From IMG/VR virus record IMGVR_UViG_2690316225_000012: a stretch of 7,480 nucleotides of DNA; one strand, given 5' to 3'. The notes beneath the pieces were generated by a model that was not told where the DNA came from, did not search any database, and worked only from the letters and a program-made list of their open reading frames with translations. Source of the DNA: a virus. Its lineage: Duplodnaviria > Heunggongvirae > Uroviricota > Caudoviricetes. Both the position numbers and the translations under genes were made by a program. Of the stretch, positions 1 through 7,480 are shown in pieces (the first letter of the stretch is position 1; the number at the start of each line of letters is the position of its first letter).

Positions 1-1
1 G

Positions 2-109
2 AATTACGAGAAGCGCCATACCAAACAGGGGATACAGACCAACCTGACGCTGAAAGAGGAAAGCTACGGCGACTGGCTGCCAAAATGTGACGACCCTGCG
101 ACAGCCTGA
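2..109 (+). CDS. 3' end of an unidentified gene (last 35 codons; start lies outside the window)
   Basis: Frame 2 is open from the window edge to TGA at 107-109 (...NYEKRHTKQGIQTNLTLKEESYGDWLPKCDDPATA*); the other two + frames contain stops. A terminator hairpin follows immediately. Product not recognised. Confidence 0.4.
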   Translation, partial: NYEKRHTKQGIQTNLTLKEESYGDWLPKCDDPATA

Positions 110-470: not shown

Positions 471-743
471 CATCAATCCAAGTAAAAATGCGCTTTCATT
501 TCACATTAACTTACAGCCATTGGTATACGATTAGGTATACGCACAAAAACTGAATTAAACAAAATCGTTAAAAATCAAAGCAATATAATATTTATTCAAA
601 CTCCGCCAGCCCCCAATCATGATTGGACGGTGTAAGGACAACACCAACAAAAACAGGAAGTTAGCAGTCTCAGCAGGACACCGACCAGACGGTGAGGAGA
701 CAAAAAAGGATACGCAAAGGAGCCGCGGCTCTCAAGTGTGAAA

Positions 744-769
744 GAAGCCCGCAAATTGCGGGCTTTTTT
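744..769 (+). terminator. Rho-independent terminator
   Basis: GC-rich stem GCCCGC (747-752) / GCGGGC (758-763), extendable by A-T pairs, loop AAATT, followed by T6 (764-769). No ORF upstream, so it may end a non-coding transcript or insulate orf343. Confidence 0.8.
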
Positions 770-824
770 ATTGATCAGTCAACAATAAACAGTAACCGAA
801 TGAGAATTTAATAAGGATATTCAT

Positions 825-1856
825 ATGGAAGCTACTGTGGATTCGATTGATTTTCTGATCCGTAGTGAAGATGATTTTCTAAACTTTCTGGAAGAAATGA
901 AAGCCCGAGAGGGGCTTGATTCTAAAGAGTTTATTTTCCCTAACGTAAAGTTTGCAGGCTGGCCATCCTTAGACATAAATGTAAAAGGAGAGCGGTATCA
1001 TTCATCAATTACATCAGCAATGTTGTTTGGTATGTCAATGCTCAACGAGGAGATACAGCGGGCGTTTGCAACCATACGATACGGATCGCAGAATCTTCAA
1101 CGCTTGACTAATGAAGACAAGCAACGACTTGATATAAATTTTAAAATTAGCGAAGGTTCTAGTGATGCGGAAGGCACCACTGACAAGATCATCAACGCAG
1201 TAACTGATTTTTTGCGAGATACTATGTCTGGACTGAACGGCTGGCAGAAAATGCTTGTTATAATCACAATGGTTGGCGCGGCCAGCACATGTGGTTATCA
1301 CTACATTTCAGAAAATGCCGTAACAGAAAGACATGCAACTGATCGGCAGGTTGAAATTGCAAAAACCACATCCGATGGCATAAACAAAGCCATAGAAGCA
1401 ACATTAGATTATAAAATCTATGGGAAATCAGCGATTAGCGATAAAGTTACTAGTCACGGACAAGCAGGTAAAAGTGCTTTAGTGAAGCAATTAGCTGCTG
1501 ATCCTACTGTCGAAACCGTGACTTTAGGAAATGAGAAACTAACACGACAAGACCTAAATACCTACAACAGCCGACAATCTGTAGATAGAGAACGTAAAGA
1601 ACGAACTGATATATTTTCCATCAAAGGTGTAACCAGAACAGGGCCAACAAATCAGGATATTAATATTAACGTTGTTAGGGTCTCTAATGACGAATGCTTC
1701 ACAATCAAAGCTTCAGCTGATGTTATCACCCAAGATGAGTTGACAGCTATTGTTGACGCTTTGTCAAACAACTCTCATATTAAAATCAGTTACTTAGAGG
1801 TAATTGAAAAGGGTGCTGTTTCTATAGGTCAGTTCAACACTATTGTTTCAGAATAA
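825..1856 (+). CDS. Hypothetical protein, 343 aa, with one central hydrophobic (likely transmembrane) segment; AT-rich cargo gene of unknown function
   Basis: Long ORF with ATG at 825 and an AAGGA ribosome-binding site at 813-817 (7-nt spacing). Hydrophobic stretch WQKMLVIITMVGAASTCGYHYI. Visibly more AT-rich than the tail genes. No motif I can assign to a known family. Confidence 0.8.
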   Translation: MEATVDSIDFLIRSEDDFLNFLEEMKAREGLDSKEFIFPNVKFAGWPSLDINVKGERYHSSITSAMLFGMSMLNEEIQRAFATIRYGSQNLQRLTNEDKQRLDINFKISEGSSDAEGTTDKIINAVTDFLRDTMSGLNGWQKMLVIITMVGAASTCGYHYISENAVTERHATDRQVEIAKTTSDGINKAIEATLDYKIYGKSAISDKVTSHGQAGKSALVKQLAADPTVETVTLGNEKLTRQDLNTYNSRQSVDRERKERTDIFSIKGVTRTGPTNQDININVVRVSNDECFTIKASADVITQDELTAIVDALSNNSHIKISYLEVIEKGAVSIGQFNTIVSE

Positions 1857-1907
1857 TCACTTAACCCCATTTATGTCGGTTGAGGTTATAAGTCACGGAG
1901 ACCAGAT

Positions 1908-2252
1908 ATGTCCTTAAAGTATGCACATGAAAAATTTCATACTGCAGTACTTACTCTTGCGGGCCATGGAAGTATTCAAGAACGCTTGATTAATTCGTAT
2001 GTTTTTAGCCTTGGGCATCTTAAAACAGCCGATGATATTCCAAATGCCTTACAAAGCAGGTTCGATGAATTATGTAAGGAACTGACTAAGTTTGATGCCA
2101 CTGGCGATGAGGGGCGAGTTCAAGCAACAGTATCAAAACTTAACGATTTCGAGATCAATAAACTGATCGAAGATATTGTCAGTCTTAACGATGATATTTG
2201 CATGAAATTGGCTCTGACGGATGAGACTTACCAAGACATACACCAAAGTTAA
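1908..2252 (+). CDS. Hypothetical acidic protein, 114 aa; its last 27 codons lie inside the left inverted repeat
   Basis: ATG at 1908 with GGAG at 1897-1900 (7-nt spacing), 51 bp after orf343, same strand and AT-rich composition. Stop at 2250-2252, followed by a hairpin at 2280-2302. Confidence 0.75.
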   Translation: MSLKYAHEKFHTAVLTLAGHGSIQERLINSYVFSLGHLKTADDIPNALQSRFDELCKELTKFDATGDEGRVQATVSKLNDFEINKLIEDIVSLNDDICMKLALTDETYQDIHQS

Positions 2253-2279
2253 TTGATTAAATTCAAAAAGTTAACGTTC

Positions 2280-2302
2280 AACCAGCCAGTTTTTGGCTGG
2301 TT
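2280..2302 (+). terminator. Hairpin terminator downstream of orf114 (convergent with orf70)
   Basis: AACCAGCC (2280-2287), loop AGTTTTT, GGCTGGTT (2295-2302), followed by TATTGTCTT. Sits between the convergent orf114 and orf70. Confidence 0.55.
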
Positions 2303-2336
2303 TATTGTCTTATAATATTCTTGCTCGAATGATGCA

Positions 2337-2549
2337 CTATTTATGATGTAATCCGGACATCAGTTCATGGACAAGATTATCTCTTTCATTGTGTTGCAAC
2401 CGTAAATGCATAGCAAAAAGGTGAGCACTATCCTCATTCCTCTTCAAGCCATGCTGTTCAAGATACCCGAAAAAACGGCTTCTCTTATCCGCTATTTCCT
2501 GAGTCTGACGTGCAACATTTACCAAATTTTCTAGCGTTTTTCTTGGCAT
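2337..2549 (-). CDS. Hypothetical small basic protein, 70 aa, immediately downstream of pin (copy 1)
   Basis: Identical to ORF 6135-6347; the strong AGGAGG ribosome-binding site read from the right copy (6122-6127, 7 nt before the ATG) is present here by symmetry. Product not recognised. Confidence 0.6.
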   Translation of the reverse strand: MPRKTLENLVNVARQTQEIADKRSRFFGYLEQHGLKRNEDSAHLFAMHLRLQHNERDNLVHELMSGLHHK

Positions 2550-2747
2550 ACTATTTCCTCCTGAAATTGTTGTAATTCACTAGGATATTCATTTTAATTT
2601 GTATCATTTAGTACCAAAACCGCTATCAATTAACAAAGCCATCGTTGTGGTTTACCTTGCAGCCGTTTTTTGTCATTGACTCTATGTGAAAATAATGAAT
2701 CATCATGAGATTGGCTCACACGTTCTTGAATTCGACGAGCTGTGTCT

Positions 2748-3302
2748 TTATTTATCTCCTGCCGGAAACCTCTGATACAAAGTCGATACGCCAACATCAT
2801 AGATAATCGCAACTTTCTGGCGCGGAACTCCTGATGCAATTAATCGTCCGGCTTGTGCCCATTGTTCTGGTGTAAGTTTGGGACGACGTCCACCAATTCG
2901 TCCCTGTGCGCGAGCAGCTTCCAGTCCAGCTTTTGTTCGTTCAACAATCAGTTCTCGTTCCATTTCAGCCAGGGCCCCCATCACATGAAAGAAAAAGCGC
3001 CCCATTGGGGTACTGGTATCAATTGAATCCGTCAGACTACGAAAGTTGATGCCTCGTTCGCGCAACTCCTCCACCAGCACGACAAGATGCCGCATACTGC
3101 GCCCCAGTCGGTCCAGTTTCCAGACCACCAGCGTATCGCCTGCCGATAATGTCCTGAGCAGTTTTTTCAGTCCCGGCCTTTCGGACTTTGTACCGCTTAT
3201 CTTGTCTTCAAAAATCAGCTCGCATCCTGCACAGTTCAGCGCATTACGTTGTAGATCTGTGTTCTGGTCATTTGTTGACACACGTACATAGCCAATAAGC
3301 AT
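2748..3302 (-). CDS. pin: Serine DNA invertase, Hin/Gin/Cin/Pin family (copy 1), 184 aa
   Basis: Translation MLIGYVRVSTNDQ... has the N-terminal catalytic Ser10 motif of small serine recombinases and a C-terminal helix-turn-helix region (GVPRQKVAIIYDVGVSTLYQRF). Preferred start is the internal ATG at 3300-3302, which has a GGAG site 7 nt upstream, not the ORF-track start at 3338. I recognise it as e14 Pin-like. Confidence 0.9.
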   Translation of the reverse strand: MLIGYVRVSTNDQNTDLQRNALNCAGCELIFEDKISGTKSERPGLKKLLRTLSAGDTLVVWKLDRLGRSMRHLVVLVEELRERGINFRSLTDSIDTSTPMGRFFFHVMGALAEMERELIVERTKAGLEAARAQGRIGGRRPKLTPEQWAQAGRLIASGVPRQKVAIIYDVGVSTLYQRFPAGDK

Positions 3303-3356
3303 GGTAGATCTCCCTGACAAAAGCAGGAATGATGCCATTTGCTCGTTATTTCTGCA

Positions 3357-3382
3357 TTTTCATAAACGTTGGTTTGGGAGAA
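3357..3382. other. 26-bp invertase crossover site 1 (pix/gix/hix-like)
   Basis: TTTTCATAAACG-TT-GGTTTGGGAGAA: two imperfectly palindromic 12-bp half-sites around a 2-bp AA/TT core, matching the architecture of hixL/gixL/cix sites. Located between pin and variable cassette A, in frame for GLGE. Confidence 0.75.
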
Positions 3383-3383
3383 G

Positions 3384-3823
3384 CGGCAAAACGAAATGTG
3401 GGCAACGGGGAAAACCAAATCCCTGATATGTCTTTCTGGACGGTTACTGGTGGCAATGGAAATTTTGTGATTCGTCAACCTGACGGGCTAATCATTCAGA
3501 TGGTTACTGTAAGTATAAGCGGTCCAGTGGCGATGAATGGAATGACTGATAATGCTTATGCCATTACAGGTTCTAATAAGTCTTATATTGCCACAGCCAC
3601 ATTGCCCTTTGTATTTCCTAATAAGGTGCTGGGCGTTATCCCTCTGGTATCAACAACAGCTTATGGTGGTGTATCCAGTAATATTACAGGTTCATACGCG
3701 ACGGCGGTTTGTTCTTTTGCCGCTGTCAGGGGGAATAATACGATTGTGTTCAAAGTCGACAAACCACTGAATGCAGCCTTTCCTTCAGATACCAGCGTCT
3801 CAGCGTTAATCATTGGACGGTAA
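3384..3823 (+). CDS. Side tail-fibre C-terminal variable cassette A (no start codon of its own; in frame with the GLGE codons of site 1)
   Basis: ORF track 3329-3823; the first 18 residues (MMPFARYFCIFINVGLGE) are read from pin-upstream and crossover-site sequence shared with cassette B, so the listed start is not real. Sequence diverges from cassette B exactly after GLGE. Confidence 0.75.
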
Positions 3824-3825
3824 GA

Positions 3826-4269
3826 ATGAACTCAGTATTCTTTTCACCCGCAAGTAAAAGTTTTTATCTGCAAGAATTGTTTCCAGAATATGAGGATGCG
3901 GGAACGCTTCCTGATGATGTTATTGAAATTACCAGAGAAACATATGAGCAATTTCTTGGGCTGCATCCAGAAGGGAAAGAAATTGGCGCTGACAGTTCAG
4001 GACGGCCAATATGGATTAATTCCCCGCCGCCTTCAAAAGAGGATGAGATGCTGGCGGCTGAAATGAAAAAGATATCTTTGGTTTCAGAAGTCAATACCTA
4101 CATCAATACCCATCAGTGGCCTGGCAAAGCTGCTATTGGTCGTCTGAAAGGTTACGAGCTGGAACAATATAATTTATGGCTGGATTATCTGGACGCACTG
4201 GAACTGGTTGATACCTCCAGTGCTCCAGATATTGAATGGCCTACGCCTCCGGTAGTTCAGGCCAGATGA
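3826..4269 (+). CDS. Tail fibre assembly protein (Tfa), paired with cassette A
   Basis: 147 aa ending ...YLDALELVDTSSAPDIEWPTPP, the conserved Tfa C-terminal motif. ATG lies 2 nt after the cassette A stop. Confidence 0.85.
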   Translation: MNSVFFSPASKSFYLQELFPEYEDAGTLPDDVIEITRETYEQFLGLHPEGKEIGADSSGRPIWINSPPPSKEDEMLAAEMKKISLVSEVNTYINTHQWPGKAAIGRLKGYELEQYNLWLDYLDALELVDTSSAPDIEWPTPPVVQAR

Positions 4270-4846
4270 CATCCGGCGCGGTGCTGGTATCTGTTGCAGT
4301 CACCGCGTCAATGTAATCCAGCACAGCGTTAAGCCGGGTTGTTTCTGCCTGCGTCAGCTTCCGCCCGGCCTGCAATTTCAGCTGAATCAGACTAATGGAA
4401 GCCATAGCAGCATCAATCAGTGACTGGCGCCGTACTTCTGCCGCGTCTACTGCGGCGTTATGCTGTGCCTCAGTATCGGTCACCCATTTCTCACCATCCC
4501 ATTTATCGTATGACGTTAACGGGGCGATAGTGGTTGTATTTTCAGGGTAATCACCCGGAACTGTGATTTCTTTTGATTCTCCTGTTTCGGTGCTATAGAC
4601 GATTTCACCGCGATGGTCTGGCACATATTCCCATGAGTTAAAATCTGCAGAACGGCAAATTGCATAACCAGCTTTATATGAGCCAGGAGCATCTAAACAG
4701 GAACATGCCGGGATACCAACACCCACAGCAAGATATTCAGTTGATGTGGAAATATATTCCCGTGTTTCACCATCATAATTATAAACGGTAATGTCTCCGG
4801 CCTTTGTGGCGATGAGTTCATTATTTAATACAGCTTTACTTATCAT
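4241..4846 (-). CDS. Tail fibre assembly protein (Tfa), paired with cassette B
   Basis: 201 aa ending ...LDYIDAVTATDTSTAPDVIWPELPEA (Tfa C-terminal motif). Start overlaps the cassette B stop as ATGA (4843-4846); its 3' end overlaps the other tfa by 29 bp. Confidence 0.85.
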   Translation of the reverse strand: MISKAVLNNELIATKAGDITVYNYDGETREYISTSTEYLAVGVGIPACSCLDAPGSYKAGYAICRSADFNSWEYVPDHRGEIVYSTETGESKEITVPGDYPENTTTIAPLTSYDKWDGEKWVTDTEAQHNAAVDAAEVRRQSLIDAAMASISLIQLKLQAGRKLTQAETTRLNAVLDYIDAVTATDTSTAPDVIWPELPEA

Positions 4847-5300
4847 GCAGCCCTCACAATATAATTAAAGGCGATGTTACGGGAGCGGGTTTCAGATGCT
4901 GTGCGAACTGAGCGAGATGCGTCGAATGTCCAGTTATAAGCGCCATAACCCTCAATAATTTCGGCTTCCTTTAGACCTGTAGATAATACTTGCCCATGTT
5001 GACTAAATGGCCCTGAACTAAGTACGTCTCTAAAAAGCTGGGTACGCCCAAAAGAACCAACAATATTCTGAATTGCATCATTCTGTGCAGATAATAAGTT
5101 ACGACCAGAGTCAATCCCGCGCCCATCATCCCAGCCACGAATAAATTCACCGCGTAAATCTGGTAATTTTAATGTTGGGTAAGCCTTTGCCAGATTTGGG
5201 TACTTTTCAGAAGAAAATACTGCTCCGTTACATTTTAGCCACCCCGTTGGCGGAGTGGCGGAAGGCCACGGAACAGGCACACCAACGGGTAATGCCGAAC
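4843..5300 (-). CDS. Side tail-fibre C-terminal variable cassette B (no start codon of its own; in frame with the GLGE codons of site 2)
   Basis: ORF track 4843-5355. After GLGE: GSALPVGVPVPWPSATPPTGWLKCNGAVFSSEKYPNLAKAYPTLKLPDLRGEFIRGWDDGRG...RNIAFNYIVRAA, which I recognise as a Mu S / e14 StfE-type fibre C-terminus. Confidence 0.8.
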
Positions 5301-5301
5301 C

Positions 5302-5327
5302 TTCTCCCAAACCAACGTTTATGAAAA
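5302..5327. other. 26-bp invertase crossover site 2 (inverted copy of site 1)
   Basis: TTCTCCCAAACC-AA-CGTTTATGAAAA; exact reverse complement of site 1; encodes FINVGLGE on the minus strand at the start of cassette B. Confidence 0.75.
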
Positions 5328-5381
5328 TGCAGAAATAACGAGCAAATGGCATCATTCCTGCTTTTGTCAGGGAGATCTACC

Positions 5382-5936
5382 ATGCTTATTGGCTATGTAC
5401 GTGTGTCAACAAATGACCAGAACACAGATCTACAACGTAATGCGCTGAACTGTGCAGGATGCGAGCTGATTTTTGAAGACAAGATAAGCGGTACAAAGTC
5501 CGAAAGGCCGGGACTGAAAAAACTGCTCAGGACATTATCGGCAGGCGATACGCTGGTGGTCTGGAAACTGGACCGACTGGGGCGCAGTATGCGGCATCTT
5601 GTCGTGCTGGTGGAGGAGTTGCGCGAACGAGGCATCAACTTTCGTAGTCTGACGGATTCAATTGATACCAGTACCCCAATGGGGCGCTTTTTCTTTCATG
5701 TGATGGGGGCCCTGGCTGAAATGGAACGAGAACTGATTGTTGAACGAACAAAAGCTGGACTGGAAGCTGCTCGCGCACAGGGACGAATTGGTGGACGTCG
5801 TCCCAAACTTACACCAGAACAATGGGCACAAGCCGGACGATTAATTGCATCAGGAGTTCCGCGCCAGAAAGTTGCGATTATCTATGATGTTGGCGTATCG
5901 ACTTTGTATCAGAGGTTTCCGGCAGGAGATAAATAA
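5382..5936 (+). CDS. pin: Serine DNA invertase, Hin/Gin/Cin/Pin family (copy 2), 184 aa
   Basis: Identical translation to copy 1; GGAG at 5371-5374, ATG at 5382. The ORF-track start at 5346 adds 12 codons with no ribosome-binding site and is not preferred. Confidence 0.9.
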   Translation: MLIGYVRVSTNDQNTDLQRNALNCAGCELIFEDKISGTKSERPGLKKLLRTLSAGDTLVVWKLDRLGRSMRHLVVLVEELRERGINFRSLTDSIDTSTPMGRFFFHVMGALAEMERELIVERTKAGLEAARAQGRIGGRRPKLTPEQWAQAGRLIASGVPRQKVAIIYDVGVSTLYQRFPAGDK

Positions 5937-6134
5937 AGACACAGCTCGTCGAATTCAAGAACGTGTGAGCCAATCTCATGATGATTCATTATTTTCACAT
6001 AGAGTCAATGACAAAAAACGGCTGCAAGGTAAACCACAACGATGGCTTTGTTAATTGATAGCGGTTTTGGTACTAAATGATACAAATTAAAATGAATATC
6101 CTAGTGAATTACAACAATTTCAGGAGGAAATAGT

Positions 6135-6347
6135 ATGCCAAGAAAAACGCTAGAAAATTTGGTAAATGTTGCACGTCAGACTCAGGAAATAGCGGATAAG
6201 AGAAGCCGTTTTTTCGGGTATCTTGAACAGCATGGCTTGAAGAGGAATGAGGATAGTGCTCACCTTTTTGCTATGCATTTACGGTTGCAACACAATGAAA
6301 GAGATAATCTTGTCCATGAACTGATGTCCGGATTACATCATAAATAG
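6135..6347 (+). CDS. Hypothetical small basic protein, 70 aa, downstream of pin (copy 2)
   Basis: AGGAGG at 6122-6127, ATG at 6135; identical to 2337-2549 (-). Confidence 0.6.
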   Translation: MPRKTLENLVNVARQTQEIADKRSRFFGYLEQHGLKRNEDSAHLFAMHLRLQHNERDNLVHELMSGLHHK

Positions 6348-6381
6348 TGCATCATTCGAGCAAGAATATTATAAGACAATA

Positions 6382-6404
6382 AACCAGCCAAAAACTGGCT
6401 GGTT
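6382..6404 (-). terminator. Hairpin terminator (inverted-repeat copy of 2280-2302), here oriented to end the truncated fibre transcript
   Basis: Reverse complement of the 2280-2302 hairpin; on the minus strand the stem is followed by TATTGTCTT. Confidence 0.5.
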
Positions 6405-6431
6405 GAACGTTAACTTTTTGAATTTAATCAA

Positions 6432-6818
6432 TTAACTTTGGTGTATGTCTTGGTAAGTCTCATCCGTCAGAGCCAATTTCATGCAAATATCATCGTTAAG
6501 ACTGACAATATCTACTTCTCCCAAACCAAGGTTTTCGAGAGCCGTTTTCACCGTGCCATCAGATTTGATATCGCCAAACGGATTCTTGCGGCTTAACAGC
6601 AGCGCACGAAGCGCGGTAAGCAGCTGGTCATGCCGCCCCTTCTCCAGGCTGGCACCGGATGCCTCCACCACGCTGCAGAGTTCTTCCTGCAACATGTCAA
6701 AGTAGTCATCATCCAGATCGGTGGCAGGTGTGCCGGTCTGGGGGTTACCACGGGTAAAACCGTTCTTACCCGCGCCGAACTTATCCTTCTGCGCGGTTTT
6801 CGTGTCTATACGATGCAT
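6432..6818 (-). CDS. Side tail-fibre N-terminal constant domain, fused in this arrangement to a 27-aa tail copied from orf114 (truncated fibre)
   Basis: ATG at 6816-6818 with GGAG 7 nt upstream, 3 nt after the YmfQ-like stop. [21 protein letters not shown]...[10 protein letters not shown] looks like a fibre N-terminal domain and ends in the GLGE crossover-site codons. The ORF then runs into the inverted repeat and ends [27 protein letters not shown], identical to the orf114 C-terminus. Confidence 0.7.
6516..6541. other. 26-bp invertase crossover site 3, inside the fibre constant-domain gene
   Basis: TTCTCCCAAACC-AA-GGTTTTCGAGAG: the left half-site is identical to that of site 2, the right half-site is fibre-specific; encodes LENLGLGE in the fibre frame; 2 nt from the inverted-repeat boundary. 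Confidence 0.7.
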
Positions 6819-6821
6819 GGA

Positions 6822-7479
<658 letters not shown>

Positions 7480-7480
7480 C

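Follow-up and report, generated by a model that had tools for sequence, protein, structure and literature searches.

The DNA considered here is a stretch of 7,480 nt (the window) from the IMG/VR record IMGVR_UViG_2690316225_000012, assigned to the Caudoviricetes. The intergenic region at positions 480-769, upstream of orf343, had originally been predicted from its motifs to encode a small RNA (sRNA) or a regulatory leader. The present analysis indicates that it is very likely a recombination junction within a tandem array of mobile elements at ssrA, which encodes transfer-messenger RNA (tmRNA). The region is the seam of three things: the attachment-site (att) arm of a P4-like satellite, a dead ssrA end, and an ssrA 3' trailer supplied by a phage. 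It is considered to span a recombination junction because satellite DNA lies to the left, a decayed core in the middle, and DNA that elsewhere follows ssrA to the right. The junction is made of components of known kinds, i.e., a P4-type attachment site, a pseudo-ssrA of the psaA type and tandem elements at ssrA; the occurrence of tandem elements at ssrA was reportedly described by Williams in 2003. The features that form the junction are the following:

458-594, no strand: P arm of the satellite attachment site (attR side), 20-33% GC, identified by its match to GN03551 and to other satellite attR junctions
520-543, plus strand: two tandem 12-bp arm-type boxes, TTGGTATACGAT and TAGGTATACGCA, with cores at 522-529 and 534-541; predicted integrase-binding sites
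573-589, plus strand: AATCAAAGCAATA, which resembles a site of the integration host factor (IHF) with 1 mismatch, together with TATAAT; both are within the AT-rich spacer that leads from the boxes to the core
595-617, plus strand: pseudo-ssrA, the att core, a decayed version of the final ~23 nt of the tmRNA gene; from the alignment with ssrA of strain 602687, equivalent to psaA of K-12
618-769, plus strand: phage-supplied ssrA 3' trailer, orphaned here, with hairpin HP0 (629-645), an A-rich linker (646-666), HP1 (667-701), HP2 (719-732) and the terminator
741-769, plus strand: rho-independent terminator, bidirectional in shape, from the minimum free energy (MFE) fold, the inverted repeat 741-754/756-769 and compensatory changes

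The left part of the window belongs to the satellite. Positions 1-455 are 96.1% identical to 4291-4744 of P4 (X51522), a segment with crr, the alpha terminator and the end of alpha; the similarity to P4 does not extend past 455. From 442 to 611 the window aligns base for base with GN03551, and this stretch is ~95% conserved in other satellite attR junctions. In GN03551, a homolog of 480-775 lies at one end of a complete P4-like satellite, and the other end, with the integrase gene, abuts an intact ssrA; this satellite includes an integrase gene, one cargo gene, psu, delta, alpha and crr. Its int gene lies 185 nt downstream of ssrA and encodes an integrase 61% identical to IntA of K-12. In the window, three satellite features precede the arm:

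1-109, plus strand: the satellite's P4-type alpha gene (primase-helicase), 3' end; TGA stop at 107-109 read directly, assignment by identity to P4
117-141, plus strand: t-alpha, the rho-independent terminator of the alpha operon; the scan gave a stem at 117-134 followed by TTTTTTT, and it corresponds to the annotated P4 talpha
155-457, no strand: crr (cis replication region), two direct repeats of ~120 bp (155-276 and 336-457), homologous to P4 crr 4291-4590

All the motifs listed in the original prediction were found at their positions when the sequence was read directly. Among them, the 8-mer GGTATACG occurs at 522-529 and 534-541, and nowhere else in the window. In the 17-kb locus of GN03551 the exact 8-mer is likewise restricted to the two att arms, i.e., the P arm at attR and the P' arm between ssrA and int. 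In this P' arm, two direct boxes are located 114 bp from the end of ssrA and are followed by two inverted boxes, one of them mismatched, that abut the start of int. The boxes of the P arm have a period of 12 bp and stand 51-53 bp before the core. This geometry is that of P4: on the crr side of its annotated attP, a tandem pair of 12-bp arm repeats stands 53 bp away from the core, and on the int side there is a second pair, ~112 bp away from the core, with one inverted repeat over the int start codon. The CP4-57 element of K-12 follows the same plan with different boxes, TAGGCCCA. From their presence in att arms only, together with this P4- and CP4-57-like geometry, the GGTATACG boxes, which had been read as part of an RNA gene, are very probably DNA sites of the arm type, to which an ssrA-specific integrase of the P4 family is predicted to bind.

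The attachment site of P4 was reportedly defined by Pierson and Kahn in 1987 as a 20-bp core with 12-bp arm repeats. The site in the window resembles it in adjoining crr and alpha, in the pair of tandem 12-bp boxes that its crr side bears ~53 bp away from the core and in its AT-rich spacer; the resemblance extends, in GN03551, to the tandem boxes on the int side (114 bp from the core versus 112 bp in P4) and to the inverted boxes at the start of int. A link to the replication module, a core formed by a tRNA or tmRNA end, and boxes on both arms (the P' arm in GN03551) are all found. It differs from P4 attP in that the boxes are GGTATACG instead of GGGGGCA, the target is ssrA instead of leuX, and the integrase of GN03551 is only 36% identical to P4 Int.

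The hexamer TATAAT at 584-589 had been proposed as the promoter of a ~175-nt RNA (about 596-769) ending at the terminator, i.e., an independent sRNA gene. This hypothesis accounts for a structured, conserved, non-coding element that ends in a good terminator; moreover, a -10-like hexamer TAnAAT is present in four variants of the arm, and the A/T-rich DNA upstream could serve as an UP element. Nevertheless, it is unlikely. A consensus scan of the plus strand from 1 to 1000 called no sigma-70-type promoter; TATAAT has neither a -35 box nor an extended -10, and it occurs at chance frequency (8 copies in the window versus 4.5 +/- 2.1 expected). The hexamer and the body of the RNA belong to different mobile elements, since TATAAT sits in the att arm of the satellite, and the proposed transcription unit crosses a site-specific recombination junction at ~595. 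In 47% of the complete E. coli genomes it is ssrA that stands before the body, and junctions of the K-12 type carry no TATAAT. Finally, no Rfam family matches this element. The counterpart of the AT-rich stretch in P4 attP is likewise an AT-rich spacer, and satellite arms carry the hexamer in different forms (TATAAT, TACAAT or TAAAAT); the stretch is probably a bendable spacer between the boxes and the core and not a promoter. The IHF-like site at 573-585, detected with a pattern allowing 1 mismatch, occurs at chance frequency (14 found, 11.7 expected) and is kept for its position. The description of the whole region as AT-rich is valid for 451-600 (20-33% GC), but not for 601-750, where the GC content is ~50%.

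The central part of the junction, 595-617, is a copy of the 3' end of ssrA that is no longer functional, i.e., the att core left at attR and the equivalent of psaA in K-12. Its alignment to the final ~23 nt of ssrA contains 2 indels and 1-2 substitutions: the intact end in strain 602687 reads TTCAACTCCCGCCAGCTCCACCA, and the window reads TTCAAACTCCGCCAGCCCCCA. The 3' strand of the acceptor stem is altered from CAGCUCCACCA to CAGCCCCCA. The U that pairs with G3 in the acceptor stem of tmRNA is replaced by C in the window, in K-12 and in GN03551, and the window lacks one further base. In K-12, the pseudo-ssrA psaA is annotated exactly where 595-617 of the window aligns. ARAGORN detected no tmRNA gene in the window, and Rfam gave no tmRNA match. 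The cores at the attR of satellites differ by the length of a C-run or by small deletions, e.g., GCCAGCCAATC, GCCAGCCCAATC, GCCAGCCCCAATC, GCCAGCCCCCAATC (the one in the window) and GCCAGCCCACCAATC; these variant cores were observed at 607-617 of the window and in IMG/VR loci L165, L187, L193, L202, L210, L244 and others, and the U of the tmRNA G3:U pair is lost in all of them.

On the right side, the sequence belongs to another element. Positions 595-7480 are 99.9% identical to the chromosome of E. coli 602687, where an intact ssrA runs straight into the sequence from 618 onward and is followed by orf343, orf114, the pin invertase gene, invertible tail-fibre genes and ymfQ. The Citrobacter phage phiNP integrates at a 25-bp core that corresponds to the ssrA 3' end (PMC6456863). 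A homolog of 618-731 is present in phiNP directly after this core, and the record of phage LLS annotates an attP together with a "tmRNA pseudogene". The layout xis-int-(cargo)-core-trailer-variable cargo-tail fibre is shared by LLS, pZ1323, CT01_p3 and the CFSAN064035 prophage, and several circular "plasmids" of 30-44 kb are excised phages with this same layout. Homologs of the trailer were detected in phiNP, LLS, Ayreon, the excised phage circles and IMG/VR contigs; a scan of IMG/VR gave at least 120 viral contigs with the trailer. Among the IMG/VR matches listed, the exact 25-nt ssrA end lies immediately upstream in 75, and the whole ssrA is present in 31 of the 75. As for complete E. coli genomes, ssrA is contiguous with the trailer in 2537 of 5426 (47%; junction query L005:5944-6103), and the trailer is present anywhere in 4228 of 5426. 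From this, 618-769 is the left end of an ssrA-integrating prophage of the phiNP/LLS type and not ancestral host DNA. The window resembles the attP or attL of these phages in its ssrA-end core (25 bp in phiNP; PMC6456863), trailer homolog, variable cargo and tail-fibre genes; it differs in that its core is decayed and detached from ssrA, and phiNP lacks the palindrome CCAATCATGATTGG and has a different terminator hairpin.

A scan of genome contigs with the 16-mer ACACCGACCAGACGGT gave E. albertii L113 as the only real homolog among the matches listed; this 16-mer is a poor query that returns mostly chance matches. Apart from the ssrA context, a piece of the trailer of ~85 nt (624-708 of the window, 88%) was observed in the K. 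pneumoniae IncFIB/IncFII plasmid p90CM2-172k (L010:3982-4086) and in five similar plasmids, where it sits among metabolic genes and small "TonB family" open reading frames (ORFs), far from ssrA or an integrase, and is probably a relic.

K-12 provides a close known counterpart of this junction, i.e., psaA at the attR of CP4-57 (b4645; Kirby et al.). There, the CP4-57 island is followed by psaA, by a homolog of 618-768 (88.7% identical; the orphan copy occupies 2,777,986-2,778,145 of K-12) and then by ypjA. In both junctions a pseudo-ssrA fragment has C in place of the U of the G3:U pair and precedes the same trailer and terminator. In contrast, the element upstream in K-12 is a CP4-57-type island that ends in the cbtA/ypjF toxin genes and not a P4-like satellite, the gene downstream is the convergent ypjA and not orf343, TATAAT is absent, and the core of the window is 1 nt shorter.

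The genes that follow the trailer differ from one element to another, and include orf343, the convergent ypjA, restriction-modification genes, ddi/HicAB, BRO and DUF262-HNH. Since the downstream genes are variable, a role of the element as a cis-regulatory leader or attenuator of orf343 is excluded. Such a role was suggested by its location on the strand of orf343, 55 nt upstream of this gene, and the weak Trp/Thr-leader matches at the terminator (E 0.8-5.6, far below the gathering score) could be seen in its favor; however, these matches cover only a generic terminator hairpin, no conserved leader peptide is present, and in other phages and strains this element stands before unrelated genes, all of which makes a leader hardly credible.

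The junction was very probably formed as follows. An older temperate prophage of the phiNP/LLS type would have integrated first at ssrA; its attP would have carried the ssrA 3' end, the three-hairpin trailer and the terminator, and its integration would have rebuilt ssrA. The trailer terminator would then have stopped the strong ssrA transcription before the phage cargo (here orf343 and orf114). Later, a P4-like satellite with an integrase that targets the ssrA 3' end would have inserted at ssrA, supplying its own short trailer and terminator to this gene, as seen in GN03551. The copy at 618-769 would have been left orphaned, with a whole satellite (~10 kb in GN03551) between it and the ssrA promoter. 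It is clear by position that the minimal function of the block is that of a phage-supplied 3' trailer and terminator of the rebuilt ssrA, which shields the cargo. Where the trailer is contiguous with ssrA it should be transcribed from the ssrA promoter, and 741-769 is the putative natural end of the ssrA transcript in lysogens. The copy in the window is most likely silent or weakly transcribed, given that it is cut off from the ssrA promoter and lies behind the alpha terminator and crr. An alternative raised in the original prediction, that the terminator insulates orf343, was essentially right, but the insulation is against ssrA transcription.

An arrangement that recalls this one has been described in Streptococcus pyogenes M1UK, where the ssrA terminators (T1 and T2) control the expression of prophage cargo downstream of ssrA, including read-through into speA (PMC9951164). 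In both cases a prophage is found at ssrA with a terminator before the cargo. The two systems differ in sequence and host, and in S. pyogenes the phage lies between two host terminators, whereas here the phage brings the trailer and the terminator.

Several observations weigh against the interpretation of the region as an array junction with a simple trailer. The ssrA gene and the satellite integrase lie outside the window, and the picture of a tandem array is based on related genomes. The exact combination found at this junction is present in no genome of the E. coli collection, in which the best match to the junction is 95%. The satellite arm is ~95% conserved throughout, and the conservation of the boxes is inseparable from this background. 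All variants of the arm keep TAnAAT as their -10-like hexamer, and a weak outward promoter is conceivable. Lastly, the trailer is more conserved and more structured than termination needs, and its description as "trailer plus terminator" may be incomplete.

The structure of the trailer was evaluated with 80 distinct homologs. It comprises HP0 (629-633/641-645), HP1 (667-671/697-701, with an inner stem 679-683/690-694), HP2 (719-723/728-732) and the terminator. Paired cells amount to 96.6% in the alignment, versus 41-49% when the partners are slid, and cells changed on both sides to 91, versus 7-16 when slid; the covariation observed was reached by 0 of 500 shuffles. For instance, pair 633-641 is AU in 32 sequences, UA in 32 and CG in 13, and pair 629-645 is GC in 45 and AU in 24; in HP2 the variant GAGTCGCGACTC is compensatory, and in the terminator stem 9 sequences show double changes from G-C to A-U, and phiNP has a different hairpin in the same place. 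The structure tested is the fold of the window itself; the homologs are relatives of one another, and their retrieval with a 28-nt seed inflates conservation. The median identity to the window over 618-735 is 93%; conservation starts at the CCA of ssrA and ends at the T-run, and both flanks are unrelated. RNAalifold alone recovered HP1, two terminator pairs and, where HP2 lies, an alternative pairing; it did not recover HP0, which rests on the pairing count for the named structure.

These results uphold a part of the original prediction, in that 618-769 is a conserved, structured, non-coding element running to a terminator; the promoter, the single transcription unit and the leader are not supported. 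The palindrome CCAATCATGATTGG (613-626), the box GAGCCGCGGCTC (720-731) and the terminator are conserved in the 80 homologs, the last two with compensatory changes. The terminator is a GC-rich hairpin (741-754/756-769) with T6 at 764-769 and a 13-bp stem in the MFE fold; it was missed by a simple terminator scan because the T-run pairs with the upstream A-run. The folding and Rfam searches that had been suggested gave a structured block (MFE z-score -4.6), but no Rfam family at the gathering threshold. With Rfam 15 and the whole window at E<=10, nothing was detected for 595-740, and the matches at the terminator (Trp/Thr leader and STnc320, E 0.8-5.6) are sub-threshold and reflect a generic hairpin. 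A covariance model built from the 80 homologs detected no further or distant copy in P4, e14, the left end of CP4-57 or the left end of the satellite, all of which have short trailers of unrelated sequence.

The region is not strictly free of ORFs, as had been stated, given that two short ones overlap it, at 619-741 on the plus strand (40 aa) and at 617-754 on the minus strand (45 aa, TTG start). Both were rejected as coding sequences: the first has a stop at codon 5 in 31 of the 80 homologs and is intact in 14, and the second is intact in only 2.

The conservation of 618-735 could also be understood if this sequence were the P' arm of the attP of the resident phage, kept for sites of the integrase, IHF or Xis. 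In agreement with this, it is located directly after the att core in phages with a proven or annotated attP at ssrA, and the repeat GACGGTG is present at 627-633 and 688-694. However, the integrases encoded beside the trailer belong to at least four families, with no detectable identity or ~22% identity between them, while the trailer remains 79-93% identical. Since the adjacent integrases are unrelated and the P side is not conserved at all, the arm sites of one integrase do not explain the conservation of the trailer; besides, compensatory substitutions are not required of protein-binding sites. A P' arm is thus a highly improbable explanation.

Another possibility is a retroregulator similar to lambda sib/tI, in which the int transcripts of the excised phage would cross attP into the element and be destabilised, and integration would separate int from it. 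Both are structured elements with a terminator across attP from int. In LLS, pZ1323, CT01_p3, Kp_p4 and RHB23 the element is downstream of xis-int on the same strand and across the att core, and its presence is independent of the integrase family. On the other hand, completion of the RNase III hairpin in lambda sib depends on sequence past tI, whereas here conservation ends exactly at the T-run, with no conserved extension to an RNase III site; up to ~2 kb of cargo lies between int and the element in some phages, and in Ayreon int points away from it. For these reasons this role is quite improbable.

A different question is whether the trailer, besides being a terminator, is a phage-encoded non-coding RNA (ncRNA). 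It would be expressed only in lysogens, co-transcribed with tmRNA and freed by the processing of the tmRNA 3' end, with its own function in trans or in processing, and the copy in the window would be a silenced orphan. This is a possibility to be kept in mind, though a doubtful one. It finds support in the compensatory changes of the three hairpins upstream of the terminator, in the median conservation of 93% across phages with unrelated integrases and unconserved flanks, and in the orphan copies of K-12 and the window, which keep the structure. In addition, maturation of tmRNA does not require the trailer, and the other elements that target ssrA, i.e., the satellite and CP4-57, use unrelated trailers of 45-70 nt; since these elements manage with unrelated short trailers, the extra conserved hairpins suggest an additional role at the RNA level. 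Against this, the high identity may partly reflect recent spread and recombination among prophages at one site, the 28-nt pattern used for collection inflates conservation, and RNAalifold recovers the structure only partly. Between HP0 and HP1, positions 646-660 (AACAAAAACAGGAAG) read as five consecutive A-R-N triplets. Such tracts are of the kind bound by the distal face of Hfq, and the tract together with the U-tailed terminator is consistent with the ncRNA reading.

It is conceivable, although rather unlikely, that the four-hairpin block of ~150 nt is a phage RNA, made only in the lysogen from the very strong promoter of ssrA, that acts in trans (e.g., by binding Hfq, as a sponge, or in the control of superinfection) or that modulates the maturation of tmRNA. 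If so, an undescribed RNA family would lie behind ssrA in about half of the E. coli genomes, and the copies in the window and in K-12 would be its fossils. A tRNA 3' external transcribed spacer, 3'ETS-leuZ, was reportedly shown by Lalaouna et al. in 2015 to act as an sRNA sponge. The trailer may be compared with it in concept, as a candidate RNA from the 3' trailer of a stable-RNA precursor that ends in its terminator; it differs in its phage origin, since 3'ETS-leuZ is of the host. A literature search found no publication that describes this trailer, the K-12 RefSeq annotation shows no ncRNA between psaA and ypjA, and the C0293 sRNA of e14, in an analogous position after icd, has no similarity to it.

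Two observations concern trailers in other elements. Each element that targets ssrA places its own short hairpin and terminator after the ssrA CCA, then its own arm boxes, and then int, as seen at the left end of CP4-57 in K-12 (L008:956-1160) and in GN03551 (L007:11578-11763); it is a shared design of these elements built from unrelated sequences. Copies of the Ayreon type (L002:2991-3106; L235) have neither the ssrA fragment nor the terminator. The Ayreon record annotates a promoter, TTGACA-17-TACAAC, that overlaps HP0 and that a simple promoter scan does not call; if real, it would make HP1-HP2 a separately transcribed RNA or leader in this phage.

Beyond the trailer, the window contains the first genes of the resident prophage:

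825-2252, plus strand: variable cargo of the resident prophage, orf343 (825-1856) and orf114 (1908-2252)

The product of orf343 matches phrog_6191 (function unknown), and neither orf343 nor orf114 has a Pfam or PADLOC match; they are candidates for unknown moron or defence genes. Further downstream, a perfect inverted repeat of 1213 nt (2171-3383 and 5301-6513) flanks an invertible tail-fibre segment of 1917 nt. This repeat duplicates the end of orf114, an ORF of 70 aa and the whole pin-type invertase gene, of which 602687 has one copy; behind it, at 6515-6534, the crossover site of 20 nt, CTTCTCCCAAACCAAsGTTT, is present for the third time. The inverted repeat is either an inverted duplication mediated by Pin or an artefact from the assembly of mixed orientations. 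At the very end of the window, a match to Rfam isrC (RF01387) spans 7450-7480 and covers the first 31 positions of this family, with 25.6 bits and E 0.043; it is cut by the window end and thus below gathering.

In this region the boxes, the palindrome and the apparent promoter are all explained by two elements that share the ssrA site, and the anatomy of an att site should be looked for in any motif-rich intergenic DNA that adjoins P4-like or prophage modules before such DNA is called an sRNA. The attachment site of the satellite follows the plan of P4 with a new box sequence, which offers a testable recognition code for the ssrA-specific integrases of the P4 family. If recombination to the left of the altered bases excised the satellite, the decayed core would pass to ssrA, and this could inactivate tmRNA because the core lacks the partner of the G3:U pair and a proper ACCA end; inactivation of tmRNA on excision has been reported for CP4-57. 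The tmRNA 3' trailer and terminator are supplied by a prophage in 47% of the complete E. coli genomes. That an ssrA-prophage junction can matter clinically is illustrated by speA in S. pyogenes M1UK (PMC9951164), and the conservation and structure of the trailer, greater than termination needs, lead one to ask whether ssrA transcription is exploited or tuned by phages.

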